DNA of 64,000 nt from Chloroflexota bacterium (GTDB taxonomy: Bacteria > Chloroflexota > UBA11872): assembly GCA_022821905.1 (NCBI GenBank), contig JAJECS010000030.1:8586-72585 (forward strand), written 5' to 3'. This document shows, piece by piece, positions 553-59,205 of the stretch; positions within the stretch are counted from its first letter, which is position 1, and every line of letters starts with the position of its first letter. The notes under the pieces are model-generated. The model ran no database searches, was not told where the DNA came from, and saw only the letters and a program-made list of their open reading frames with translations. The position numbers and the translations under genes are program-made.

Positions 553-579
553 GGATTCCCGCCTCCGCGGGAATGACGG
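553..579. repeat. Copy of the dispersed palindromic repeat GGATTCCCGCC(T/C)CCGCGGGAATGACGG (hairpin ATTCCCGC/GCGGGAAT)
   Basis: The same 26-28 nt motif recurs near 21123, 45267, 54079, 56463 and 63639, always in intergenic DNA. Confidence 0.75.
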
Positions 580-21122: not shown

Positions 21123-21148
21123 GGATTCCCGCCTTCGCGGGAATGACG
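21123..21148. repeat. Copy of the GGATTCCCGCCTTCGCGGGAATGACG dispersed repeat
   Basis: Exact motif; intergenic, between the second tRNA-Phe and the cyclophilin gene. Confidence 0.75.
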
Positions 21149-36075: not shown

Positions 36076-36096
36076 GGGCGGGTTTGAAACCCGCCC
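36076..36096. terminator. GC-rich hairpin GGGCGGGT-TTGAA-ACCCGCCC between convergent genes; candidate bidirectional terminator; member of repeat family 2
   Basis: A perfect 8-bp G/C stem with a 5-nt loop; similar elements occur at 36925 and 56402, each followed by CCCTAC(C)CCGC. Confidence 0.45.
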
Positions 36097-45393: not shown

Positions 45394-45591
45394 GGTTGAT
45401 CCCGACGGGCGCCTCCGCGCGGACATACCGGCGCGAATCTGGTGTGACCTGAGTGGGGTATAGGAACGGCGGAGCCCACGCTGCACGCAGCGCGGGCCGC
45501 CGAGCACGAGAAAATTGCAAGATCTTGGGAACGATTGGCCCGCGGGCCGCGTACTGTCTCCAAAGGGACCGCTGCGTCTGGAGCCCGTTGC

Positions 45592-48500
45592 ATGCCTGGG
45601 CGACCATTGACCGACGAGCCACGTCGCCGGCGGCTGCAAGCCATTCGCGTGGTCACGGCTGCGTTGGCCCTGGCGCTGATCATCGCCGCGCCGCCAGCCG
45701 CCGAGGCCGAGGACCCGCCCGCGACGACCGGGCCGCGGTTCGTCGCCGTCGGCAGCGGGGAGTACCACTCGTGTGCGCTGCGAGCCGACGGCGAAGCCGT
45801 GTGCTGGGGCGCTCAACCCGTTGATCCCGACGCCGAACTCGATCCGGTTGACTTCGGCCAGGCCTCGCCACCAACCGGCGAACGGTTCACGGCCATCAGC
45901 AGCGGCGGCTGGCACACCTGCGGCCTGCGTGAAGACGGTTCCGCCGTGTGCTGGGGCCGCGATGAACACGGGCAGGCCTCACCGCCGATAGACGAGCGGT
46001 TCTCGGCCATCAGCAGCGGCGGCCGTCACACGTGTGCCCTGCGCGAAGACGGAACCGCGGTGTGCTGGGGGAACAATCAGGAAGGCCAGGCTTCGCCGCC
46101 TGAGGGCGAACGCCTAGCCACGGTCAGCAGCGGCGGCTACCACACCTGCGGGTTGCGCGAGGACGGACAGGCCGTGTGTTGGGGGCCGGAGCCTGGGTCG
46201 GACGGCCACACCGGATGGTCGGCGCCGCCCGACGAGCCGCTGGTCGCACTGTCCAGCACCTGGGGCAGGTCATGCGGCCTGACGGCTGATGGCGGGGCGG
46301 TCTGCTGGGGCGCATGGTCGGACGTGGTCTATGAAGGCACGTCGCCGCCCAGCGATCAGTTTGTCACCTTGACCGTGGACGCTGAGGGCGGCTGCGGTCT
46401 CTGGACCAATCGCACGGCGGTGTGCTGGGGCTTCGGCTACTTCTATCCCACGCCCGAACGTGTGCGCTTTGCGGCGATCAGTCGCGCCAACAACCACATT
46501 TGCGCGATCCGAGAGGCTGACGGCGGGTTGGTGTGCTGGGGCGACAACGACTATGGGCAAGCGACGCCTCCAGACGGCGAGCGATTCGTCAAGGCCGAGC
46601 CCCGCGTCAAGCCGCCCAAGCCCGTGGTGCCCTTTGTTGCCGTCAGCAGTGGCTCGAACCATGCGTGCGGCCTCACCGGCAGTGGCAGCGTCTGGTGCTG
46701 GGGCGACGATGAGTACGGAAAGGCGTCACCGCCCGAAGGCGAGACATTCGCGGCCATCGCCAGTGGATCGGATCACACCTGCGGGATCCGCCTGGACGGC
46801 ACACTGGTCTGTTGGGGAAGAGATCACCGGGCCCAGGCATCGCCGCCGGAAGGTGGCGGATTCGCCGCCGTCACCAGCGGGCTGAGCCACTCCTGCGCAT
46901 TGCGCGAGGACGGCACGGCCGTCTGCTGGGGCGGCTTCGTTGACGATGAGAGCCTGGAAACGCTGAGCGAGCAGCAACTCAGCGCCATCAGCAGCGGGGC
47001 GTTTGGGTTCTGCGCGCTGCGAACCGACGGCAGCCTGATTTGCTCCCAATCCGTCGGCGCGCCGCCGGAGGGCGAGACGTTTGCGGCAATCAGCGTGGGG
47101 TGGGACCACGCCTGCGGGCTGCGCGAGGACGGCTCGCCGGTCTGCTGGGGGGAGCGCTTTTCCTGGACGTCGCGCGGCCAGGCCTCGCCGCCGGAGGGTG
47201 AGCGGTTCGTGGCCATCAGCAGCGGGTTCGACCACACCTGCGCCGTGCGGGCGGACGGCACCCCTGTGTGCTGGGGCGGCGAGGATCCCCAATCCGATCG
47301 CGGCCAGGCCTCACCGCCGCCAATCGAACGGCTAGTCGCCGTCAGCAGCGGATCCGGATTCACCTGCGGCCTGCGCAGGGACGGCACGGAGGTCTGCTGG
47401 CGCTTCACACCCTCGGGCGTGGCTATCGACTCCGAAGCCATTCGCGCCCACTACCGATACAGGAGCGCGCGGCCGTCGCTTGTCAGCGGCGGCGACTGGC
47501 ACTCCTGCGGCGTCCTGGAGGCGGGCGGCTTCGCGTGCGTCCATACCAATCCTGGGAGCGACATACCGCTAGGCATCAGCAGCCGCGGATTCGAGGAGGT
47601 CAGCAACCGTGTCTTCACGTCGATGAGCACCGGCAATCGATTCACCTGCGCGCTCGATCCGGACGGCGCACCGGTGTGCTGGGGCATCGACGACTACGGC
47701 CAGGCGTCGCCGCCCGCCGATGAGCGATTCACCGCCCTCAGCAGTGGGGAACGGCATGTCTGTGCGCTTCGCGGGGACGGCACGCCGGTGTGCTGGGGCG
47801 ACCCGGCGCAAGGCCGCACCACGCCGCCCGCAGGGGAATCGCTCACCACCATCAGCAGTGGCTGGGCCCACACCTGTGCGCTCCGTGCGGACGGCACGCC
47901 CATCTGCTGGGGCCGCGACTACTACGGCCAGGCATCGCCGCCCGACGGTGAGCAGCTCGTCACCATCAGCAGCGGGCACGCGCACACGTGCGGCTTGAGA
48001 GCAGATGGCGCACCGGTCTGCTGGGGACGGAACGACAGCGAGCAGGCATCACCGCCTGCGGGTGCGCAGTTCGTATCGATCAGCAGTGGCCCGGCCCACA
48101 CCTGCGCCCTTCACGCCGACGGCAGCCCGTTCTGTTGGGGCGATGAAGATAGCGAGGTTCTGAGAGCGCCGAGCGTCGACCAGTACAGCTCGGTTTACAG
48201 TGGCGAGGTGCACGCCTGCGGACTGCGGGCGGACGGGACTCTTGTCTGCTGGGGCGACAGCTACTCGGCCGCCCCGAAGGGCGAGGCACTCGCGACGGTG
48301 AGCCTCGGGCTGGCGCACAGCTGCGGCCTACGCCAGGACGGCCGCCCTGTCTGTTGGGGCGATGGCTACGAGACGCCGGTTGTCTCGGCCCGCCAGTCGA
48401 TCTACCAGATCATCAGTGCGCAGAGTGTCCGCGCCATCGCCAGCGGCTATGACCATGCGTGTGTGCTGCGCCAGGACGGCACCCCGGTGTGCTGGTCGCT

Positions 48501-51500
48501 CAGGGGCGCCTATGGCAACCGGCACGGCGAATTGTCGCCGCCCTACGGCGAGCGCTTCGCCTCGATCCGCAGTGGCAACGAGCACACCTGCGGATTGCGT
48601 GAGGACGGCGTGGCGATTTGCTGGGGCGCCAGCGAGCAACCACCGGAGGGCGAACGCTTCTCGGTCATCAACCCTGGCGCGTATCACACCTGCGGATTGC
48701 GTGAGGACGGCACCGCGGTCTGCTGGGGATTCAATGAGCAGGGCCAAGCCGATCCGCCGTCAGACGAGCGATTCACGGACATCAGCAGCGGCTACACCCA
48801 CACCTGCGCCTTGCGGGCGGACGGTGAGGCCGTGTGCTGGGGCGCCGAGGATCCCGCGAGAGACCGCGGTCAGGCCTCGCCGCCGCCCGGCGAGGAATTC
48901 GCAGCCATTAGCAGCGGGCAGGACCATACCTGCGCGCTGCGTCGAGACGGAACGACCGTCTGTTGGGGCGATATTGGGGCGGGGCGCGTCTCGCCGCCCC
49001 ACAGCGAGCGCTTCACGGCGCTCAGCAGCGGGACCGCTCACACTTGCGCCCTGCGCGAGGACGGCACAGCCGTGTGCTGGGGCTACAACCAAAGCGACTT
49101 CGGCGCCGCCCGCGACTTCGGCGGCCAAGCATCGCCCCCACACGGCGTAGAGTTCTCCCAGATCAGCAGTGGTGACGAGTTCACCTGCGCCCTGCGCAAG
49201 GACGGAACGGGCGTCTGCTGGGGATTCTGGCTCGTGCCGGAAGCGCCACGCTACGCGCCGATTGACGTCGGTCCGTTCGCGGCCGTCAGCGGCGGCGCGC
49301 AGCACACCTGCGCCTTGCGCCGCGACGGTACCGCCTTCTGCTGGGGCGACAACACCCAGGGTCAGGCCACGCCGCCTGCCGGTGAGCGGTTCGCGGCCAT
49401 CAGCAGCGGAACCAATCACACCTGCGCGCTCCGCACGGACGGCACGGCCGTCTGTTGGGGATCCGATGAAGGCGGTCGGGCTTCGCCCCCTGCGGACGAG
49501 ACGTTCACGACGATCAGCAGCGGAGCGGGGCACACATGCGCCTTGCGGCAGGACGGCTCGGCGGTTTGCTGGGGACAGGACTTCGCGCGCCAGTCGTCGC
49601 CACCCGCCGAAGATCGATTCACCGCCATCAGCAGCGGCCGCGCACATACGTGCGCCCTGCGCGAGGATGGCAGCGCCGTCTGCTGGGGTCAGATTGACTT
49701 CTATGACCTCAGGGCGCCGGAGGACGAACGCTTCGTCGCCATCACGGCCGGTCCGGACTACGTCTGCGCCCTGCGGGCGGATGGCACGGTCTGGTGTCGG
49801 GGTGGCGACAAATATTGGCTGCCCCGGTCGATCCCCGAGCATGAGCGACTCGTAACCATCAGTGGCGGCCACGCCCACGCCTGCGGGCTCCGCGAGGACG
49901 GCTCCGTTGCCTGTTGGAGCGAGCAGGACATTGACGGCCGAACGTTCCCACCGCGTCGCGAGCGCTTCGTATCCGTCAGCAGCGGCGGTCGGCACACCTG
50001 CGGCTTGCGCGAGGACGGCGACATCCTCTGCTGGGGCGAGGACATTCACGGTCAGTCGTCGCTCGAGGGTCCGCCGCGAACCTCGCTGTTCGGCGAGCGG
50101 TTCACGGACATCGCCGCCAGCACCTATCCCTGCGCCCTCCGGCAAGATGGGACGGCATTCTGCTGGCCGGCTCCCAAGGCTCCCTTTTCCTATTCCGCCG
50201 CGGAGCCAACGATGCCGCCGAACGAGCGACTCGCGTCCATAAGCGCCGGCTACGATCACCACTGCGGGCTGCGCGACGACGGTGCCCCCGTCTGCTGGAG
50301 CGACGAAGACGCGTGGGAGCCGAACCTCTGGGGCCAAGCCACGCCGCCGGAGGGCGAGCGCTTCGTGACGCTGAGCAGCGGCGGCGGTCACACCTGCGCG
50401 TTGCGGGAGGACGGAAGCGCCGTCTGCTGGGGCCGAAACACGGATGCTTACCTTAATGAGCCGGTCGGCCAGGCAACGCCGCCCGCCGATGAGCGATTCG
50501 TGGCGATCAGCAGCGGCGGAACGCACACATGCGCCCTGCGAGCGGACGGGACCGCCGTCTGCTGGGGCGACAATCGCGATAGCTACGGCAATTGGATTGG
50601 TCAGGCGATCCCTCCCGAAGGCGAGCGCTTCACAGCGATTGCCAGCGGCGGCGACCGCACGTGCGCCATTCGCCTGGACGGAACCGTCGCCTGCTGGGGC
50701 TATAACCCCTACGGCCGACATGCGCCGCCCGAGAACGAGACGTTTGCCTCGATCTCCAGCGGAAGCAACCACGCCTGCGGCATTCGCACCGACGGCACGG
50801 CCGTCTGTTGGGGCACGACGGGCGAACACGCCTCGGTGCCAGCGGGAGAGACGTTTGCGTCAATCAGCGCAGGCCGGTACCTCACCTGCGGCCTACGCGA
50901 CGACGGCACCGCCCTGTGCTGGGGCGGTGGATATCCGGTCGCGAGACCGGCTACGCCGCCCTATGTTCCGCCGCCGCCGACCATCCCCCCGCCACCGAGA
51001 CCTCTCCCTCCGCTCACCGCCATCAGCAGCGGCTTTCGACACACCTGCGCCCTTAGCGACGAGGGTCTCGCCATCTGCTGGGGCGAGAACAATTACGGAC
51101 AGGCGACTCCGCCGGAAGGCGTGCGATTCAAAGCCATCAGCAGCGGTCGCCAGAGCACCTGCGGGATTCGAGTGGACGGCATTCCCATCTGCTGGGCGTA
51201 TCAAGACCGCATGGAAGCCCAGACGCTATCGAATGGAACATTCGAGTCGATCAGCACGGGCTGGGGTCACGTGTGCGCCCTGCGCGACGACGGCACCGCC
51301 GCCTGCTGGGGAGCCGACGGCTATGGTCAGATCCGAGTGCCCGACGGCGAGCGCTTCATCGCCATCGGCTGCGGGGACTTTCACACCTGCGGGCTGCGCC
51401 ACGATGGCTCGGTGGCGTGCTGGGGGCGCAATGACCTGGCTGTGACCACGCCGCCGGAGGGCGAGCGGTTCGTCGCCATCAGCGTCGCCGGCTATCACGC

Positions 51501-51807
51501 CTGCGGCTTGCGCCAGGACGGAACGCGGGTGTGCTGGGGCAGCGAGTTCCAGGGCCAGAGCTATCCGCCAGCTGGCAAGCGGTTCACGGCGATCAGCGGC
51601 GGCGGCTCCCACACCTGCGGCCTCGACGAGAACGGCGCGGCCGTCTGCTGGGGGCTCAACGAAAACGACCAGGCCACGCCGCCACCGGGCGAACGGTTCA
51701 GCATCATCAGCAGCGGCGGCTCCCACACCTGCGCCATTCGCCCGGACGGCACTGCCGTCTGTTGGGGGCTGGACGATGATGGCCAAGCTTCGCCGCCACG
51801 GCCATAG
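45592..51807 (+). CDS. Giant secreted protein (2071-2090 aa) made of about 50 tandem RCC1-like (regulator of chromosome condensation / beta-propeller blade) repeats
   Basis: An N-terminal signal (PRRRRLQAIRVVTAALALALIIAAPPAAEA) followed by the recurring unit ...F(T/V)AISSG..HTC(A/G)LR.DGTAVCWG....GQA(S/T)PP.GERF... about 50 times, with a Pro-rich linker (PPYVPPPPTIPPPPRPLPP) near residue 1810. Confidence 0.85.
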   Translation: MPGRPLTDEPRRRRLQAIRVVTAALALALIIAAPPAAEAEDPPATTGPRFVAVGSGEYHSCALRADGEAVCWGAQPVDPDAELDPVDFGQASPPTGERFTAISSGGWHTCGLREDGSAVCWGRDEHGQASPPIDERFSAISSGGRHTCALREDGTAVCWGNNQEGQASPPEGERLATVSSGGYHTCGLREDGQAVCWGPEPGSDGHTGWSAPPDEPLVALSSTWGRSCGLTADGGAVCWGAWSDVVYEGTSPPSDQFVTLTVDAEGGCGLWTNRTAVCWGFGYFYPTPERVRFAAISRANNHICAIREADGGLVCWGDNDYGQATPPDGERFVKAEPRVKPPKPVVPFVAVSSGSNHACGLTGSGSVWCWGDDEYGKASPPEGETFAAIASGSDHTCGIRLDGTLVCWGRDHRAQASPPEGGGFAAVTSGLSHSCALREDGTAVCWGGFVDDESLETLSEQQLSAISSGAFGFCALRTDGSLICSQSVGAPPEGETFAAISVGWDHACGLREDGSPVCWGERFSWTSRGQASPPEGERFVAISSGFDHTCAVRADGTPVCWGGEDPQSDRGQASPPPIERLVAVSSGSGFTCGLRRDGTEVCWRFTPSGVAIDSEAIRAHYRYRSARPSLVSGGDWHSCGVLEAGGFACVHTNPGSDIPLGISSRGFEEVSNRVFTSMSTGNRFTCALDPDGAPVCWGIDDYGQASPPADERFTALSSGERHVCALRGDGTPVCWGDPAQGRTTPPAGESLTTISSGWAHTCALRADGTPICWGRDYYGQASPPDGEQLVTISSGHAHTCGLRADGAPVCWGRNDSEQASPPAGAQFVSISSGPAHTCALHADGSPFCWGDEDSEVLRAPSVDQYSSVYSGEVHACGLRADGTLVCWGDSYSAAPKGEALATVSLGLAHSCGLRQDGRPVCWGDGYETPVVSARQSIYQIISAQSVRAIASGYDHACVLRQDGTPVCWSLRGAYGNRHGELSPPYGERFASIRSGNEHTCGLREDGVAICWGASEQPPEGERFSVINPGAYHTCGLREDGTAVCWGFNEQGQADPPSDERFTDISSGYTHTCALRADGEAVCWGAEDPARDRGQASPPPGEEFAAISSGQDHTCALRRDGTTVCWGDIGAGRVSPPHSERFTALSSGTAHTCALREDGTAVCWGYNQSDFGAARDFGGQASPPHGVEFSQISSGDEFTCALRKDGTGVCWGFWLVPEAPRYAPIDVGPFAAVSGGAQHTCALRRDGTAFCWGDNTQGQATPPAGERFAAISSGTNHTCALRTDGTAVCWGSDEGGRASPPADETFTTISSGAGHTCALRQDGSAVCWGQDFARQSSPPAEDRFTAISSGRAHTCALREDGSAVCWGQIDFYDLRAPEDERFVAITAGPDYVCALRADGTVWCRGGDKYWLPRSIPEHERLVTISGGHAHACGLREDGSVACWSEQDIDGRTFPPRRERFVSVSSGGRHTCGLREDGDILCWGEDIHGQSSLEGPPRTSLFGERFTDIAASTYPCALRQDGTAFCWPAPKAPFSYSAAEPTMPPNERLASISAGYDHHCGLRDDGAPVCWSDEDAWEPNLWGQATPPEGERFVTLSSGGGHTCALREDGSAVCWGRNTDAYLNEPVGQATPPADERFVAISSGGTHTCALRADGTAVCWGDNRDSYGNWIGQAIPPEGERFTAIASGGDRTCAIRLDGTVACWGYNPYGRHAPPENETFASISSGSNHACGIRTDGTAVCWGTTGEHASVPAGETFASISAGRYLTCGLRDDGTALCWGGGYPVARPATPPYVPPPPTIPPPPRPLPPLTAISSGFRHTCALSDEGLAICWGENNYGQATPPEGVRFKAISSGRQSTCGIRVDGIPICWAYQDRMEAQTLSNGTFESISTGWGHVCALRDDGTAACWGADGYGQIRVPDGERFIAIGCGDFHTCGLRHDGSVACWGRNDLAVTTPPEGERFVAISVAGYHACGLRQDGTRVCWGSEFQGQSYPPAGKRFTAISGGGSHTCGLDENGAAVCWGLNENDQATPPPGERFSIISSGGSHTCAIRPDGTAVCWGLDDDGQASPPRP

Positions 51808-53177: not shown

Positions 53178-53978
53178 GTGGGCACATTCGACGGGAAATC
53201 AGTCGTGGTGACGGGCGGCGCTCAGGGCATCGGCGGCGGGGTGAGCAAGGGCTTCGCCCGGGCCGGCGCGTCGGTGACGGTGGTGGATATCGACGAAACG
53301 GCTTCCGCGGCGCTTACCGGCGGCCTGGAGGACGAAGGGTGCACGGCGCAGTACGTGATTGCCGACGTGAGCAGCCATGCGGACGCGAAACGGGCGATCG
53401 ACCAGGCCGTGTCCGCCTTCGGCGGAGTCGACGTGCTGGTGAACAACGCGGGCATTCAGCCGATGGGGTCTTATGTCAAGCTCGACGCCGAGACCGAGGA
53501 GGGTTGGGACCGGATCATCGGGGTGAACCTCAAGGCCTGCTTCCTGATGTCGAAGTACGCCATTCCCTCGATGCGCGAGCGCGGCGGGGGCACGATCATC
53601 AACGTCGCCAGCGTGCAGGGGCTGCAATCGCAACCGATGGTGCCAGCGTACGCGGCATCGAAGGGCGGGTTGCTATCCCTGACGCGAAACATGGCGCTGG
53701 ATTACGCGCCGGAGAACATCCGGGTGGTGGCGATCAACCCGGGCTCGATCGATACGCCGATGCTGCGCACGCAGGCACGGGCCGCCGGCGACGAGGACGC
53801 CATGGTGGAAACCTGGGGACGCACACACCCCATCAAGCGCATTGGCCAGCCGGCGGACATCGCCAACGCGGCGATGTTTCTCGCCAGCGATCAGGCCAGC
53901 TTCATCACGGGCGAATACCTGTGCGTGGACGGCGGGTACATGGCCCAGGGCGCCTGGGCGGGGAACTACGACGAGTGA
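53178..53978 (+). CDS. SDR-family oxidoreductase (short-chain dehydrogenase)
   Basis: TGGAQGIGGG cofactor motif, NNAG, and the catalytic S...YAASK. Confidence 0.85.
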   Translation: MGTFDGKSVVVTGGAQGIGGGVSKGFARAGASVTVVDIDETASAALTGGLEDEGCTAQYVIADVSSHADAKRAIDQAVSAFGGVDVLVNNAGIQPMGSYVKLDAETEEGWDRIIGVNLKACFLMSKYAIPSMRERGGGTIINVASVQGLQSQPMVPAYAASKGGLLSLTRNMALDYAPENIRVVAINPGSIDTPMLRTQARAAGDEDAMVETWGRTHPIKRIGQPADIANAAMFLASDQASFITGEYLCVDGGYMAQGAWAGNYDE

Positions 53979-54078
53979 CCGAGAGTTGTCACGCCCGGAC
54001 GCGGGGGCTCTGGGCCCACACGGACAAGTCAGGGACGGCCGGGGAAAGCCGTGTGCGGCCGCAAGTTGGATGACGGGT

Positions 54079-54143
54079 GGATTCCCGCCTTCGCGGGAAT
54101 GACGGAAGGGGGCGGGAATGACGGATGCGGCAGGAATGACGGA
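54079..54143. repeat. Dispersed-repeat copy extended by three tandem GGGAATGACGGA-like units
   Basis: GGATTCCCGCCTTCGCGGGAATGACGGAAGGGGGCGGGAATGACGGATGCGGCAGGAATGACGGAGG. Confidence 0.7.
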
Positions 54144-54162
54144 GGGATGACTCCGAGGTCTC

Positions 54163-56391
54163 TTACGGCGGCAGGGTCTGGAGGAAGTTGACCAGGTTCC
54201 AGATGTCGAACACGGTCAGCGTCTCGCCGAATGCCGGCATGGCCGTGTCGGCGATGCCCTGTTCGATGAAGCCGTAGAGCTCGCCGTCGGGGTGCAGCGG
54301 CACGTGAATGGTCAGGTCCAGCGGCGGCGGATCGAGTCCAGCCGCCAGCGGGCCGTCGCCCTGTCCGCCCGGACCATGGCAGCTGACGCAGTGCGCCTCG
54401 AAGTGCATGCGTCCGGCATCGACGGATTTCTGGTCGGGCGGAACGGGGTTCACGGCGCTCAAGGAGCTTGGAGCGAACTCGGGGGTGGTGACCAGCAGCG
54501 CCAGCCCAGCCGCGGCAGCGCCGAAGCCGACGACCGTCACGCCCCGCCGCGCCCAGTCCGCCCAGGCCACCGGCTGCAACATGCCGAAGGCGAGGAGGAG
54601 ACCCAGGCCGGCGAGCGCAATGGCCCACACGCGGCGCACATCGTCGGCGGCCGGGGGCGGTGCGCCGCCCGCCGCTGAGCCGCCCGGCGTCACGTCGAAC
54701 CGGAAGGGCGCGCGCGCGTCGAACTCGCCCGGGCGCCGCACGATTGCGAGCGCCTGCCAGCGACCGACGAGGCCGATGAAGTCGCCCGCCACGACGTAGC
54801 GTCCGTCAGCGTCCCCTTCCAGACGCAGATCTCGCTGCCCGATGTCCGAGTCGAGGAACTTGAACTGCAGCTCGACGTCGGCGTCCTTCACGGGCTGCCC
54901 ACGGTCCTGAAGCGTCAGGGTGGCGGTGTTGTTGCCGGGCGTGCCGGGCTGAATGCTCAACTCCAAGTCGAGATCGTCGATTCGGGTCGCCAGGTTTATG
55001 CCTCGCGCATCGCCCAACGCGACCTGGCGCGCAGGTTCGAGACTGGTCAGCAGGCCGACCGCCGCAACGACGGCGACGCCAAACAGCACCTCGGCGGCCA
55101 CCAGGCGCGGCGCCCACCGGCCGGCAGCCGTGGGCAGCACATCGTGCAGGCGACGCCGCGTCCAGAGCAGGTTGACGCCGCCCAGGCCAAGGAGCGGCGC
55201 CACGAGCGCGAGCTTGGCCACCAGCACCCGTCCGTAGTCGGTTTGCACCAAGCGCGGCAGCTCGACGACTTGAATCCAGGTGGCAAACGCGCCGGTGATG
55301 ACAAGCGCGCCGACCGAGATCGTGGCAATGGTCGAAAATCGCGCCAGCAGCGCCCCCAGCAGGCGGCGGCGCAAGGCGCCGTCGAGCGTCCGGCGGGCAT
55401 GCAGGAGCGACAGCAGCAGCGGGGCGAGGCCACCGGCCCAAAGAGCGGCCGTGAGCAAATGCAGCACGTCGGCGCTGGTGGCCGCCGTCGTGGACTCGAG
55501 CAGCGCCGCGGCGTGGCTGCCCAATGAAATCGTGACGAGCACAGCCGCGGCCAATGCCACGACCGGCAACCAGGCTCGAAGCAGCCGCGGCTCGCGGCCG
55601 GCGCGCATCAGGGCCAGGGCCAACCCGCCGACCACGATGGCCCGCACGACCCACAGCGTGCCCCACTGCCCCAAGCCGAGCGCGCTGCCGACAGCACCCA
55701 CCAGATCCGCCTCGGCATCGCCCGCCAGGCCCGCGGCCTGGGTCACCAGCAGTCCCACATGGGCGCCGGCGGCCAGACCGAAGCCGATCCATCCGAGCTC
55801 CAGGTAGCGCGATCCCGCAGTGCCGACGCCGACCGCGCGGGCGGCGGGCGCGAAGATCAGAGGCACGTGCACCGCGGTGCCCAGCACGAGCATGGCGCCA
55901 ACGAGCAGCGCGGCTCGCAGCACGGGCTCGGCGGGGCTGAGCACGAGCGCGGACGCCGGAGTGCTCGCCACGTCAGCGTCGATGGGCTCGCCTACGCTGA
56001 AGGCGTACGAGCCGCGGATCACGTGACCATCAACAACCGACAAGGTGCGCCAGGTCACGACGTAGGTGCCGTCGGCGAGCGGCGGCACGCGGACCAACAT
56101 GGCGGAACGGTTCGACGGGTCGACCTGGCTGGGGCCGTCGGTCACCGACGACCCGGAGGCATCCAGGACATCGATGCGGCTGAATTCAGGTTCGATTCGC
56201 TCGGAGAACTCGGCGGCGACGATTTGTGGCGGCTTGTCAACCGTCGAGCCCGCGGCGGGTATTGCCCGCACGAGGTTGGCATGGGCGGCGACCGGCATGA
56301 GCCCGAGGCATGCGAGCAACGCGGCAAGCGCGGTGGCCAATGCCCAGCGGCGGGCCGGCGCGTGGGTCAGACGGCGGAGCGACCGTTGCAT
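54163..56391 (-). CDS. CopC-CopD fusion copper-resistance/transport protein with a C-terminal mono-haem cytochrome c domain
   Basis: A signal peptide, then a CopC-like domain (HANLVRAIPAAGSTV...GTYVVTWRTLSVVDGH), an 8-10 TM CopD-like region and a C-terminal CVSCHG (CxxCH) haem motif. Confidence 0.75.
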   Translation of the reverse strand: MQRSLRRLTHAPARRWALATALAALLACLGLMPVAAHANLVRAIPAAGSTVDKPPQIVAAEFSERIEPEFSRIDVLDASGSSVTDGPSQVDPSNRSAMLVRVPPLADGTYVVTWRTLSVVDGHVIRGSYAFSVGEPIDADVASTPASALVLSPAEPVLRAALLVGAMLVLGTAVHVPLIFAPAARAVGVGTAGSRYLELGWIGFGLAAGAHVGLLVTQAAGLAGDAEADLVGAVGSALGLGQWGTLWVVRAIVVGGLALALMRAGREPRLLRAWLPVVALAAAVLVTISLGSHAAALLESTTAATSADVLHLLTAALWAGGLAPLLLSLLHARRTLDGALRRRLLGALLARFSTIATISVGALVITGAFATWIQVVELPRLVQTDYGRVLVAKLALVAPLLGLGGVNLLWTRRRLHDVLPTAAGRWAPRLVAAEVLFGVAVVAAVGLLTSLEPARQVALGDARGINLATRIDDLDLELSIQPGTPGNNTATLTLQDRGQPVKDADVELQFKFLDSDIGQRDLRLEGDADGRYVVAGDFIGLVGRWQALAIVRRPGEFDARAPFRFDVTPGGSAAGGAPPPAADDVRRVWAIALAGLGLLLAFGMLQPVAWADWARRGVTVVGFGAAAAGLALLVTTPEFAPSSLSAVNPVPPDQKSVDAGRMHFEAHCVSCHGPGGQGDGPLAAGLDPPPLDLTIHVPLHPDGELYGFIEQGIADTAMPAFGETLTVFDIWNLVNFLQTLPP

Positions 56392-56401
56392 GACCCTGCC
56401 C

Positions 56402-56422
56402 GGGCAGGTTTGAAACCTGCCC
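56402..56422. terminator. GC-rich hairpin GGGCAGGT-TTGAA-ACCTGCCC between the cupredoxin-like gene and the copCD start; repeat family 2; possible terminator or attenuator
   Basis: Same architecture and loop as the 36076 element; ends about 10 nt upstream of the copCD ATG. Confidence 0.35.
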
Positions 56423-56462
56423 CTACGCCTGATTTCCGCCGCGCTTCCAAGATTGACCGGAC

Positions 56463-56489
56463 TGGATTCCCGCCTTCGCGAGAATGACG
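56463..56489. repeat. Copy of the GGATTCCCGCCTTCGCG(A/G)GAATGACGG dispersed repeat
   Basis: Intergenic, immediately downstream of the cupredoxin-like gene. Confidence 0.75.
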
Positions 56490-56493
56490 GAAC

Positions 56494-57510
56494 TTAGGCA
56501 CGGCGCCGACTCCGAACCGCCAGCGCGATCGCAGCAGCGGCGGTCACCAGGCCCAGGGCGCCCACGACTATGCCGACGATGCCAATGACCCGCGCGCCGG
56601 CCGCCTCGTCGAGCGCCTCGTCCGCCGACGCCTGCGAGCTGCGCACCACTCCCTCGAGCTCTCGCACGCTGGGAAGCGTGACGGGGAATTGCGCGGCGGC
56701 GCGAGACTGAACGGCATCAAAAGTGTTGGCGCCCGACTCGAAGGACTCGTCGAACGGCTGCCCCTCGATGCTGCCAACGAATCGGAACCGATAGCCGCCG
56801 GGTTGCGTCGGGATGAAGTCCGCCGTGTAAGCGCCGGGGTGCTCGAACAGCGGCGCGAGCGCCATGACCGTCGACTGCCCCGACGAGATGTGGGTGACCT
56901 CGACTTGCAGGGTGTCCTCCAGGCCGGTCACGGGCCCGCCCAGGCCGGCGGCGGCGTGGGCCTCATCCGTATGCATGCCGCTCGCGATGAGCTGGGGCTC
57001 GCCGGTGCGGTTCACAAACACGACGGTGGTTTCAGGCTGCACCCGAAGCATGGGCGGCACGGCGCCGTCGGCGTGCAATTCGATCTCGACGCGGCTTGCC
57101 TCCGGCGCGTCGCGCGTGACTTCAATCGATCCGGCAATGTCGGGATCGATATGGCTGTGGTAGGGAATGGTCATGCCGTCGAGGCCGTGGGGAATCTCCG
57201 CCTCGAAGGATTCGCCATCCTCGAAGGGCGTGGACACGAAGATTCCGCCGTGGGCCGTGACGTCCGACATCTGGCCGCCGGCCATATCGTGTGACTCCTG
57301 GGCCCCTGGCTGGCTCTCGCCTTTGGTCACCTCGAGGAACACGGCGTTGAGATAGCCCTCGTAGGCGGGTTCGTTGAGGAAGCCGACGACCACGTCGTAG
57401 CCGGCGGATTCCCGGCCCTCGTGCGCCAGCGCGCCCGCGGTCGCGGTGGCGGTGAGGGCGACCGCCGCCGCCAGTGCGCGCGCCACGGCGCGCGCGGATA
57501 TCAATTTCAT
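56494..57510 (-). CDS. Secreted, C-terminally membrane-anchored Met/His-rich protein with a cupredoxin-like segment (candidate copper-binding protein, YcnI/CopC-neighbourhood type)
   Basis: A signal peptide with cleavage giving an N-terminal His (ALA/HEG); an HDMAGGQMSDVTAHGG Met/His motif; VVFVNRTGEPQLIASGMHTDEAH is cupredoxin-like; a C-terminal TM helix plus basic tail. Confidence 0.45.
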   Translation of the reverse strand: MKLISARAVARALAAAVALTATATAGALAHEGRESAGYDVVVGFLNEPAYEGYLNAVFLEVTKGESQPGAQESHDMAGGQMSDVTAHGGIFVSTPFEDGESFEAEIPHGLDGMTIPYHSHIDPDIAGSIEVTRDAPEASRVEIELHADGAVPPMLRVQPETTVVFVNRTGEPQLIASGMHTDEAHAAAGLGGPVTGLEDTLQVEVTHISSGQSTVMALAPLFEHPGAYTADFIPTQPGGYRFRFVGSIEGQPFDESFESGANTFDAVQSRAAAQFPVTLPSVRELEGVVRSSQASADEALDEAAGARVIGIVGIVVGALGLVTAAAAIALAVRSRRRA

Positions 57511-57588
57511 GTGAGTTCTCCTGAGGGCATGTGCCCGGCGGCGCGAGACAAGATGCTGCGCCAGCCGTGAAGGTCATCGACGAGTCGA

Positions 57589-57936
57589 CTAGCTCCGAGG
57601 CGGTGGATGCGCGGCCTGCGGCGCCCACTCGGTCACGCGTTGGGTCGTTTGCGTGGTTCGTCGCGAGGCGATGAGCAGTAGGGCCGTGGCCATCAGCGCC
57701 GGGAGCACGCCGGCGAGCAGACCAAAGGCGCCCTCGGGAAATTCGCCCGACGACGCCTCCGATTCAGTTTCCAGCGGCGCGTCGCCGGTCGCGAAATGCA
57801 CGTGGCGGTGCCCCTCGTGCCCGGGCGGAACCTCGATGCCAATGGCCTGCGCGAGCCACACGGTCAGCAGGGGCGCGGCCAGGGCAAGCAGCGCCGCGCG
57901 CGCGAGCATGCGCCCGCCGAGGCTGGATGGGGTCAT
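57589..57936 (-). CDS. Small His-rich bitopic membrane protein (about 115 aa) in the copper gene neighbourhood
   Basis: An N-terminal signal/TM segment, a PPGHEGHRHVHF His cluster, an acidic linker and a C-terminal TM helix; the start is uncertain (57936 or 57906). Confidence 0.4.
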   Translation of the reverse strand: MTPSSLGGRMLARAALLALAAPLLTVWLAQAIGIEVPPGHEGHRHVHFATGDAPLETESEASSGEFPEGAFGLLAGVLPALMATALLLIASRRTTQTTQRVTEWAPQAAHPPPRS

Positions 57937-58021
57937 GGCAGTCACGATTCGCGGAAACCGTTCACGCGCACCAGCCAAGCTTACTGCCGCCGGAGGACGG
58001 TAACGCGAACGGCTTCCTCGG

Positions 58022-58294
58022 CTAGACGCGCGCCGACATGTCGACGGGAAGGACAACCAGCATGGTGGAGCCGGCGCTGCCGGCAGACGCACCATCGCTG
58101 CCAGCGGCAACATTGGCCCGGATGTGGTCGATGACCGTTTCGACTTCCCGTTCGGCCACGCCGACCAGCAGGGTCACGTTGCCGCGCCTGAGGAAACCGC
58201 CCGTGGTGTTGATGCGCGTGACGCGGAAATCGTCCGCAACCAGCGCCGCCTGGACCGTGTTGGCGTCGTCGTTCGACAACACGGCGAGCACCAT
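58022..58294 (-). CDS. darA: PII-like cyclic-di-AMP receptor (DarA/PstA, DUF970 family)
   Basis: MVLAVLSNDDANTVQAALVADDFRVTRINTTGGFLRRGNVTLLVGV aligns with B. subtilis DarA (YaaQ). Confidence 0.7.
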   Translation of the reverse strand: MVLAVLSNDDANTVQAALVADDFRVTRINTTGGFLRRGNVTLLVGVAEREVETVIDHIRANVAAGSDGASAGSAGSTMLVVLPVDMSARV

Positions 58295-58377
58295 GCGTTC
58301 AACCGGAATCTCGGGAAGCACCAGTCAGCAGCAGGGGATGGGCAGCGCGCGACGCTAGCACCGGCTGAATCTAGGGG

Positions 58378-59205
58378 TCAATCTCCCGGTGGCGGGAACG
58401 CCACGTGCAAGTCGTGCGCATGCGCAAGCTCGATCATGGCTTGATGGATGCGCCCGTTGCTAATCACACAGCGCCGGCTGTCGGGGCCCATGGGACGCCA
58501 ATAAATGTCCGTGGCGCGACCGCCGGCCCGCTCGACGATCAGCGACGCCGCCGCCTGGTCCCACCACTTGACGTTGCCAAGGAGCGCGCCGTCGAAGCGG
58601 CCGGCACCCACCCACGCCATCTCGAGAGCGGCGCTGCCGGTCAGGCGGACGCGATGGAAGGTGGAGGCCGCAGCGGCCAGCGCCACGTGAAGGCGCTGGG
58701 AGTCCTCGCGCGACATACCCGCCTGCGCCCACGCGACGGCTGATTCGGCGGGGTCGTCGCGGTCCGTGACGCGCACTGTTGTTCCGTTGCACTCCGCGGA
58801 CCCGTCGGAGGTGGCCGTGAACAGCTCGTCGCGCACCGGATCGAAAATCACGCCGACGTCCACCCGCCCGTGGGATGCATGCGCCACGCTGACGCAAAAC
58901 TGCGGCTGGCCGCGTGAGTAATTGTCGGTGCCGTCGAGCGGATCGATGACCCAAACGTCGGGTCCCAGCGTGTCGTCGTGAGGCACTTCCTCGGAGAGAA
59001 TCACATGGCCGGGGAACCGGGCGAGCAGCACCTCGCGAATGGCGCGGTCGGCAGCCATATCGGCGTCCGTGACGACCGTTGTCTCCCCTTGATAGGTCTT
59101 CCAGCGAATGTCGATGACGCCGACCAACCGCCGGACGAGCTCGTCGCCGGCCGCCCGAGCCGCGTCGATGGCGGCCTCGAGCATCGCAGCGGAGTCCGCG
59201 GTCAT
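58378..59205 (-). CDS. Inositol monophosphatase family protein (SuhB/CysQ-like)
   Basis: IMPase motifs ...EE.. , VWVIDPLDGTDNY and WDQAAASLIV. Confidence 0.8.
   Translation of the reverse strand: MTADSAAMLEAAIDAARAAGDELVRRLVGVIDIRWKTYQGETTVVTDADMAADRAIREVLLARFPGHVILSEEVPHDDTLGPDVWVIDPLDGTDNYSRGQPQFCVSVAHASHGRVDVGVIFDPVRDELFTATSDGSAECNGTTVRVTDRDDPAESAVAWAQAGMSREDSQRLHVALAAAASTFHRVRLTGSAALEMAWVGAGRFDGALLGNVKWWDQAAASLIVERAGGRATDIYWRPMGPDSRRCVISNGRIHQAMIELAHAHDLHVAFPPPGD

Follow-up and report, generated by a model that had tools for sequence, protein, structure and literature searches.

The window examined here is a stretch of 64,000 nucleotides from a Chloroflexota bacterium (GenBank assembly GCA_022821905.1, contig JAJECS010000030.1), and all coordinates below are positions within it. 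On its minus strand, as the last of three genes, lies an open reading frame (ORF) at 54163..56391 (ATG start; stop codon at 54163-54165), which on retranslation encodes a single protein of 742 amino acids (aa). Pfam and NCBIfam profiles and an AlphaFold model resolve this protein into CopC, CopD, a putative YtkA-like domain, a pair of transmembrane (TM) helices and a cytochrome c, i.e., a CopC-CopD-YtkA-like-2TM-cytochrome c fusion. A preliminary description, made from the sequence of the locus, had read the same ORF as a CopC-CopD fusion with a C-terminal cytochrome c domain, and by every feature examined the protein does belong to the CopC, CopD and class I cytochrome c families. The Pfam models concerned all matched above their curated cut-offs, namely CopC (PF04234; residues 37-133, E 2.3e-20, 73.8 bits against a cut-off of 23.3), CopD (PF05425; residues 347-448, E 1.6e-19, 70.6 bits against 32.1), Cytochrome_CBB3 (PF13442; residues 657-737, E 3.2e-12) and Cytochrom_C (PF00034; residues 658-740, E 2.2e-9), and 63 of 63 aligned family members matched all four. 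The NCBIfam CopD model aligned over a longer region (residues 157-454) with 105 bits, under its equivalog cut-off of 195; judged by this score, the CopD part is therefore a member of the family and not an equivalog of the Pseudomonas protein.

Membrane topology was predicted from a hydropathy scan and the positive-inside rule and compared with an AlphaFold2 model built from 63 homologues (mean predicted local distance difference test score, pLDDT, 83.9; predicted template-modelling score, pTM, 0.73), and the two agreed. The chain opens with a signal peptide (residues 1-36, 56284..56391), which has a basic n-region and a hydrophobic core at residues 17-35 and is predicted to be cleaved between VAA and H37. 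A lipoprotein anchored through Cys28 was ruled out: this residue is conserved at 4%, and the sequence ahead of it makes a poor lipobox. The CopC domain follows (residues 37-135, 55987..56283), supported by Pfam, alignments to Protein Data Bank (PDB) structures, Foldseek and conservation, and modelled as an outside beta-sandwich at residues 40-133. CopD (residues 154-455, 55027..55932) is predicted to cross the membrane with eight helices, of which seven exceeded the hydropathy threshold and one is a weaker segment identified by inspection, with long helices across residues 154-448 in the AlphaFold model; its assignment draws on NCBIfam, Pfam, these helices, the positive-inside pattern and BLASTP. 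The preliminary description did not cover what comes next. A second extracytoplasmic beta-sandwich, eight-stranded in the model (residues 465-567, 54691..54999), is followed by a helical hairpin, TM9-TM10 (residues 582-635, 54487..54648; helices at 582-603 and 612-635), which hydropathy, loop charges and the modelled helices all point to and which anchors the haem domain. The last part of the protein is a class I monohaem cytochrome c domain (residues 645-742, 54166..54459), recovered by PF13442, PF00034, phmmer and Foldseek and modelled as helical at residues 654-737.

The beta-sandwich at residues 465-567 is best described as divergent and YtkA/FixH-like. The Pfam match to YtkA (PF13115) at residues 472-546 was below threshold (E 0.011, 16.8 bits against a cut-off of 25.9) and that to FixH at residues 473-547 was weak (E 0.055); among the 63 family members, nine matched YtkA at E <= 0.01 (best 2.8e-6) and four matched FixH, and the strands are visible in the AlphaFold model. 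In the family alignments this sandwich has no conserved His, Met or Cys.

All loops predicted to be cytoplasmic are Arg-rich, and ten helices follow the outside-facing CopC domain (by hydropathy, with the same helix count in the AlphaFold model), which places the haem domain both on the side of the membrane where c-type cytochromes mature and on the side of the CopC copper site. The hairpin thus brings the chain back outside ahead of the haem domain. On this prediction, the CopC domain, the YtkA-like sandwich and the cytochrome all lie on the outer side, and the CxxCH region is extracytoplasmic rather than part of a cytoplasmic loop.

Conservation was evaluated in alignments of 99 and 63 family members, with identities down to ~28%. 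In the CopC domain, His37, Glu64, Asp121 and His123 are invariant or nearly so (96-100%; A36, H37 and A38 at 96% each). The preliminary description had likened the mature N-terminus HANLV to the His1 of CopC, and the likeness holds up: with the predicted cleavage between VAA and HANLV, His37 aligns with residue 1 of mature CopC structures (5icu and 6tpb), while Asp121, His123 and Glu64 align with Asp83, His85 and Glu27 of Pseudomonas fluorescens CopC. The counterparts of these ligands are the residues mutated in PDB entries 7bk5, 7bk6 and 7bk7, and the fold itself is close to that of solved CopCs in Foldseek (9c14, the CopC domain of YcnJ, template-modelling score 0.91; 5icu, 0.85). Residues 37-135 hold a single Met (M98) and no Met-rich loop. 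Since the ligands match those of solved CopCs and a Met-rich Cu(I) site is absent, the domain is, as far as ligand alignment can tell, of the Cu(II)-only type, with a predicted histidine-brace site formed by His37, Asp121 and His123 and Glu64 in the second sphere; copper would accordingly arrive at the protein as Cu(II). A CopC class of this kind, C0-1, Cu(II)-only and without the Met-rich Cu(I) site, was reportedly defined by Lawton et al. in 2016.

In CopD, the invariant or near-invariant residues are Ser292, His293, Asp308, His311, Trp318, Lys393 and Glu434. His293, Asp308 and His311 (55459..55515) are invariant in the 63 sequences and predicted to face outward, with His293 and His311 at the outer face by hydropathy. 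BLASTP aligned the domain to Escherichia coli YebZ (E 3e-9) with His311 opposite YebZ His154 and His293 one column away from His135 within a gapped loop. Both YebZ histidines face the periplasm and are required for copper uptake (PMC11923076), and His295, the equivalent CopD histidine of YcnJ, is required for function (PMC13344008). The CopD histidines that are essential in YebZ and YcnJ are thus invariant in the fusion family, in favour of a transport function. No conserved Met or Cys was found in the family alignments of the CopC, CopD or YtkA-like domains.

The haem domain is equally constrained. It carries a single CxxCH, the attachment motif C668-V-S-C671-H672 (54376..54390), and an axial Met718 (codon at 54238-54240) conserved at 99-100%, as the preliminary description had it with its CxxCH domain and conserved Met; C668, C671, H672, M718, H696 and H700 are invariant or nearly so in both alignments. 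From this ligand set the domain is assigned to the class I c-type cytochromes, and covalent haem is predicted. Its closest solved relative is Thioalkalivibrio paradoxus CytC552 (7o9u, 9vr0; phmmer E ~1e-23, ~48% identity; Foldseek template-modelling score 0.76 against 9vr0), in which Cys55, Cys58, His59 and Met103 align with Cys668, Cys671, His672 and Met718. The likeness extends to the motif H696-V-P-L-H700 (54292..54306), whose two invariant histidines correspond to His83 and His87. CytC552 has an unusually solvent-exposed haem with a midpoint potential of ~+160 mV, and it accepts electrons from the Cu(I) centre of thiocyanate dehydrogenase, His83 being modelled as the path from Cu2 of that enzyme to the haem 7-propionate (PMC9456337). 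The two proteins share the CxxCH, the axial Met and the His pair; CytC552 works with a copper centre, and copCD is found in the same gene cluster as the gene for CytC552. They differ in that CytC552 belongs to no transporter, being soluble in the periplasm and bearing disordered His-rich tails, and in that its Arg95 is not conserved here, where Phe708 stands in its place. The His pair is missing from the more distant standalone cytochromes P0129 and P0130 and is therefore a signature of the subfamily; its alignment is consistent with a role as electron conduit or metal-contact point.

We then asked which proteins carry cytochromes of this type. Among the best 150 cluster representatives of an exhaustive HMMER search with the cytochrome domain alone, which were ranked by summed score and of which ~48 are multihaem, ~80 of the ~102 single-haem representatives are joined to CopD and/or YtkA-like domains, so that the subfamily appears to be mainly a CopCD-associated module. 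Some close relatives (P0330, P0360, P0379) combine the cytochrome with YtkA-like domains in several orders and have no CopD. Three others (P0281, P0297, P0369; 758-860 aa) carry two cytochrome c domains of this type together with an FTR1-family iron permease, and among the literature matching FTR1 and cytochrome c we found no paper on such fusions. Alternatively, the haem domain might pass no electrons to copper and act instead as a redox sensor or structural add-on, gating or stabilising the transporter. Additions are tolerated at the family's C-terminus, where P0333 has TPR repeats and P0373 a weak match to PD40 repeats, but all haem c ligands and both histidines of the pair stay invariant down to ~28% identity, the cytochrome subfamily is strongly specific for CopCD partners, and its closest homologue, CytC552, does carry electrons for a copper enzyme. 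We thus regard a sensory or structural role as quite improbable.

The fusion is widespread and not accidental. A search of 5.8 billion proteins returned 190 relatives at E <= 1e-5; 101 of the best 120 have a CxxCH near the C-terminus, their sources, where named, are Chloroflexi, Chloroflexota or Dehalococcoidia, and their public names, where given, are "copper resistance protein CopC" or "CopD family protein". When one genome of each species was scanned, 568 relatives were confirmed, and the best 80 of them (79 distinct loci) were examined. Nearly all of these 80 reach to about residue 740, and their sources are Dehalococcoidia, SAR202, Anaerolineae, Chloroflexia, Caldilineaceae and Ardenticatenaceae, along with three outlying metagenome-assembled genomes (MAGs) labelled Gemmatimonadetes, Proteobacteria and Sulfomarinibacteraceae. 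CopD and the cytochrome share one ORF in at least 77 species-level genomes, complete chromosomes included, and CopC is part of that ORF in 76. The window's own lineage is represented by "Chloroflexota bacterium S7_331" (L012), with a 96% identical gene.

These occurrences bear on whether the haem domain is a separate gene joined to CopCD by faulty assembly or gene calling. Such an artefact could be suspected from relatives that are called as a CopCD gene of ~605 aa plus a short cytochrome gene (L091, L092), but these turned out to be frameshifts in long-read assemblies, in which the sequence runs on in another frame via TM10 into the cytochrome. With an intact ORF in so many genomes, complete chromosomes among them, and with GC content at third codon positions (GC3) of 0.86 in the fusion ORF, like that of neighbouring genes, we consider the chance of an artefact negligible. 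P0087, P0093 and similar proteins of ~605 aa, as well as P0121 (L006), were accordingly set aside as frameshifted copies of the same gene. A genuine split form does exist in one lineage, recovered from two independent samples (L093/L094) with overlapping stop and start codons; its genes, translationally coupled, encode a 614-aa CopC-CopD-YtkA protein, a 51-aa protein and a 184-aa protein (P0123), in which the two-helix module, again predicted, precedes a cytochrome that keeps HVPLH. P0123 is the only true split form among the standalone homologues, P0125 and P0129 standing in unrelated and uninformative contexts.

Directly upstream of the fusion gene, at 56494..57510 on the minus strand, lies a gene for a 338-aa protein with a signal peptide, an Ig-like beta-sandwich, a C-terminal membrane anchor and no Pfam family. 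Its predicted mature N-terminus is again a histidine, His30 (cleavage between ALA and HEGRE), and His30, Glu31 and Arg33 are conserved. The fold resembles copper-binding sandwiches, including FtrA-P19, while Pfam did not place the protein in DUF1775/YcnI. The sandwich is split by an inserted His-rich beta domain (residues ~85-190), with conserved histidines in HGGIF, PYHSH and SGMH; its pattern PYHSH..P..AGSIEV resembles a cupredoxin copper loop lacking the Cys, a kinship that the comparisons run did not confirm, and the insert is missing from short members of the 338-aa family and replaced by a different one in others. Upstream again, at 57589..57936 on the minus strand, a gene identified from its translation encodes a 115-aa membrane protein with no Pfam match, a His-rich motif (GHEGHRHVHF) and a C-terminal PPPRS. 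It is probably the first gene of what is a conserved three-gene unit; the protein is conserved in L001, L003 and L006, with a variant form in L005, and small upstream ORFs recur in 20 and 11 related loci.

Some related loci hold further candidates. In 15 of 77, a 520-576-aa polytopic membrane protein with no Pfam match is encoded directly downstream of the fusion on the same strand (e.g., L035 7242-8807, L005 10247-11977); its mature form is predicted to start with HAFG(E/Q)RYDLP, it contains a Cys-rich motif, and in those lineages it may belong to the copper system as well. Roughly 1.3 kb upstream of the fusion, also on the same strand, L043 (3793-4362), L005 (5917-6501) and nine other loci encode a 189-194-aa protein with no Pfam match, a predicted N-terminal His (cleavage between A and HGGGFQL), a beta-rich body and a C-terminal anchor. 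Several proteins of these clusters are thus predicted to begin with His after signal-peptide cleavage. In one clade, multicopper oxidase genes (L003, L006, L091) and a DtxR-type repressor gene lie near the fusion.

The best-studied counterpart of the fusion is YcnJ of Bacillus subtilis, encoded in the ycnKJI operon. The preliminary description had invoked CopCD fusions of the YcnJ type, an apt comparison and a closer one than it claimed, since a putative YtkA-like domain is present here as well: the two proteins share the histidine-brace CopC ligands for Cu(II), the conserved CopD histidines and the order of CopC, eight-helix CopD and a beta-sandwich, which here is probably YtkA-like. Next to each is also encoded a beta-sandwich protein that is anchored in the membrane, lies outside the cytoplasm and is predicted to start with His, in a YcnI-like topology, YcnI being the Cu(II)-binding partner of YcnJ. 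The Chloroflexota fusion differs in adding the two-helix hairpin and the haem c domain, and its YtkA-like domain is divergent and without conserved metal ligands. At the level of the gene cluster, the 338-aa partner is not DUF1775/YcnI by Pfam and carries the His-rich inserted domain, there is no adjacent gene for a YcnK-type repressor, and a gene for a small His-rich membrane protein is present instead. A 2026 study models YcnJ as a Cu2+ importer and notes that no reductase is known to accompany it (PMC13344008). Outside the cell, CopC and YcnI domains bind Cu(II) very tightly (sub-femtomolar for CopCD) and copper passes to the CopD histidines, while the cytoplasm handles Cu(I).

YcnJ supports both the Qox and the Cta oxidase, and the function of its YtkA domain overlaps in part with that of CtaK, a CuA assembly factor. 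This raises the alternative that the protein serves cuproenzyme assembly rather than import, with the cytochrome docking onto CuA/CuB sites under assembly, or setting the copper redox state for them, together with the YtkA-like domain. In other CopD proteins, a cytochrome is followed by a Sco1-like domain (PMC11923076), some close relatives pair the cytochrome with YtkA-like domains and have no CopD, and Foldseek pointed to a crystal structure in which a flavocytochrome c is bound to CopC (5n1t), all of which could fit such a role. We nonetheless consider it improbable, although somewhat less so than a sensory or structural role: the YtkA-like domain here lacks conserved His, Met or Cys with which to hold copper, no oxidase, Sco or PCuAC genes were found in the annotated parts of the window or in the related loci examined, and the strict conservation of the CopC and CopD transport residues favours transport as the core function.

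The pairing of CopD with a cytochrome is not in itself new, and to that extent the preliminary description overstated the novelty of the protein. In a 2025 analysis, ~4% of the CopD sequences in a gram-negative network carried a cytochrome cbb3-type domain, with no function tested (PMC11923076). The type represented by Methylosinus trichosporium OB3b shares with ours a CopD fused to a c-type cytochrome, but it ends in a Sco1/thioredoxin-like domain and is not described as having CopC and YtkA (PMC11923076); the Chloroflexota protein has CopC-CopD-YtkA-2TM-cytochrome and no Sco domain. We found no paper on the CopC-CopD-YtkA-cytochrome architecture or on its occurrence in Chloroflexota, and it is this architecture, CopC-CopD-YtkA-2TM-cytochrome, that is new. 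By analogy, its logic, in which a permease is joined by a redox partner outside the cytoplasm and by an Ig-like accessory that binds copper, may be compared with Fet3-Ftr1, FtrABCD/P19 and EfeUOB and with the cupric reductases CcoG and Fre1, the latter paired with Ctr1, all of which differ in permease family, metal and cofactor. In the Fet3-Ftr1 class, a redox step on the metal, an oxidation, is coupled to permeation.

Against this background, we judge it likely that the haem exchanges electrons, in one direction or the other, with copper bound to the transporter, since the domain appears tethered at the outer face, belongs to the CytC552 subfamily with its candidate conduit His, and has relatives fused to FTR1. 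A functional coupling of haem and copper is also what the phylum-wide fusion, the split form, the ~80 of ~102 attached relatives and the copper partner of CytC552 would suggest. The preliminary description had proposed redox coupling, Cu(II) to Cu(I), built into the importer: the coupling finds support in these observations, while the direction is plausible and fits the lack of a known reductase for YcnJ. A reduction of Cu(II) to Cu(I) for import, by which the fusion would be a YcnJ-type uptake protein with a redox module of its own, is the direction we favour, if tentatively and at slightly less than even odds, because it would explain how copper leaves sub-femtomolar sites, fits the oxidation state inside the cell and fills a gap in the literature.

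In such a scheme, Cu(II) would be captured outside at the N-terminal histidine brace of the CopC domain, to which the 338-aa Ig-like partner and the small His-rich protein may feed it, and would then be passed to the outward-facing His293/Asp308/His311 site of the CopD channel. The two-helix anchor would keep the haem c domain beside this site. The haem would take electrons from the respiratory chain and give one to the bound copper by way of its exposed edge and His696, and the reduction to Cu(I) would free copper from very tight Cu(II) sites and commit it to inward transport. A bolder version, to which we give a little less credence still, is that the three genes for the His-rich protein, the 338-aa protein and the fusion form a self-contained machine for reductive copper uptake, in which a chain of N-terminal-His Cu(II) sites would feed the channel and the tethered haem c would reduce the copper via a gating histidine at its mouth.

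Several points weigh against reduction at the outer face. The conserved copper ligands of CopC and CopD are, by alignment, all His or Asp, a set no less suited to Cu(II) than to Cu(I), and in published models it is Cu2+ that reaches CopD (PMC13344008). The closest characterised cytochrome, CytC552, is an acceptor of electrons from Cu(I) and not a donor (PMC9456337). YcnJ and YebZ work without a fused cytochrome (PMC13344008, PMC11923076), so reduction at the outer face is no general requirement for import. No respiratory, Sco or cytochrome-maturation genes were found nearby in the annotated parts of the window and in the syntenic contigs, and the His696/His700 pair could be purely structural, e.g., hydrogen bonding to the haem propionates.

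The same ligands, of Cu(II) type with no conserved Met or Cys, published models and CytC552 precedent would fit the opposite direction, in which an electron moves from Cu(I) outside the cytoplasm to the haem and on to the terminal oxidase. The resulting Cu(II), in this model the only form bound by the histidine brace of CopC and the His/Asp site of CopD, would then be taken up or sequestered. Multicopper oxidase genes near the fusion in one clade and, by analogy, the fusion of related cytochromes to FTR1 permeases, a class in which oxidation precedes permeation, also speak for it. Set against this, most of the lineages named in the species scan (SAR202 and other Dehalococcoidia MAGs) are probably aerobes of oxic habitats, where copper is already Cu(II). 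To oxidise exported Cu(I) merely to import it again would be a futile cycle, and copper in the cytoplasm must finally be Cu(I). We thus hold an oxidising haem to be unlikely, although the most credible of the alternatives to reductive import that we considered.

The remainder of the window, like the syntenic contigs, holds housekeeping genes (short-chain dehydrogenase/reductase, major facilitator superfamily (MFS) transporter, inositol monophosphatase, aminotransferase, P-protein). Upstream of the three-gene unit, at 58022..58321 on the minus strand, lies a gene for a 99-aa DarA-like cyclic-di-AMP receptor, whose Pfam match spans positions 2-64 only of the 109-position profile and whose place is conserved in L001/L002. 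A scan of 53900-58500 for promoters and terminators gave nothing above chance. Two kinds of repeat were seen. A hairpin resembling repetitive extragenic palindromes (REP), TCCGTCATTCCCGCGAAGGCGGGAATCCACCC (~32 nt), occurs in four copies in the window against 0.17 expected (56464..56481, 54079..54096, 21123..21140 and 553..570, all on the minus strand); two of these flank the fusion gene, one in the 102-nt upstream gap and one just downstream, and the repeat gives rise to spurious ORF ends reading GFPPSRE and VIPAKAGIH. A perfect 9-bp inverted repeat, GGCAGGTTT-C-AAACCTGCC, lies at 56403..56421, 11 nt upstream of the fusion ATG, with a near-identical copy at 36077..36095, and could be a regulatory or RNA-stabilising hairpin. 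Further away, on the plus strand at 45535..51807, a 2090-aa protein with an N-terminal hydrophobic segment consists nearly entirely of RCC1 repeats (36 RCC1_2 and 14 RCC1-like-domain stretches). Its gene looks like a lineage-specific replacement, since two other genes without Pfam matches (205 and 472 aa) lie between the MFS and NYN genes in L001/L002, syntenic contigs of 90% identity.

The CopC-CopD-YtkA-cytochrome design is thus widespread but unstudied, and current annotations conceal its haem domain and point to resistance instead of uptake in Chloroflexota that abound in the sea and in soil, SAR202 for example. The 338-aa partner represents an undescribed family without a Pfam model and merits a description of its own. 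More broadly, the route and oxidation state of bacterial copper import are still unsettled, and the fusion makes this question directly testable: a predicted importer joined to a haem c domain across a phylum, with an invariant candidate gating residue in His696 and a cytochrome relative, CytC552, that talks to a copper centre, is a ready-made experimental system. If the three genes do form a reductive uptake machine, it would be the first importer in bacteria to have a cupric reductase built in, a functional equivalent of the eukaryotic Fre1-Ctr1 pair, and would answer where copper is reduced during CopCD/YcnJ-mediated import.

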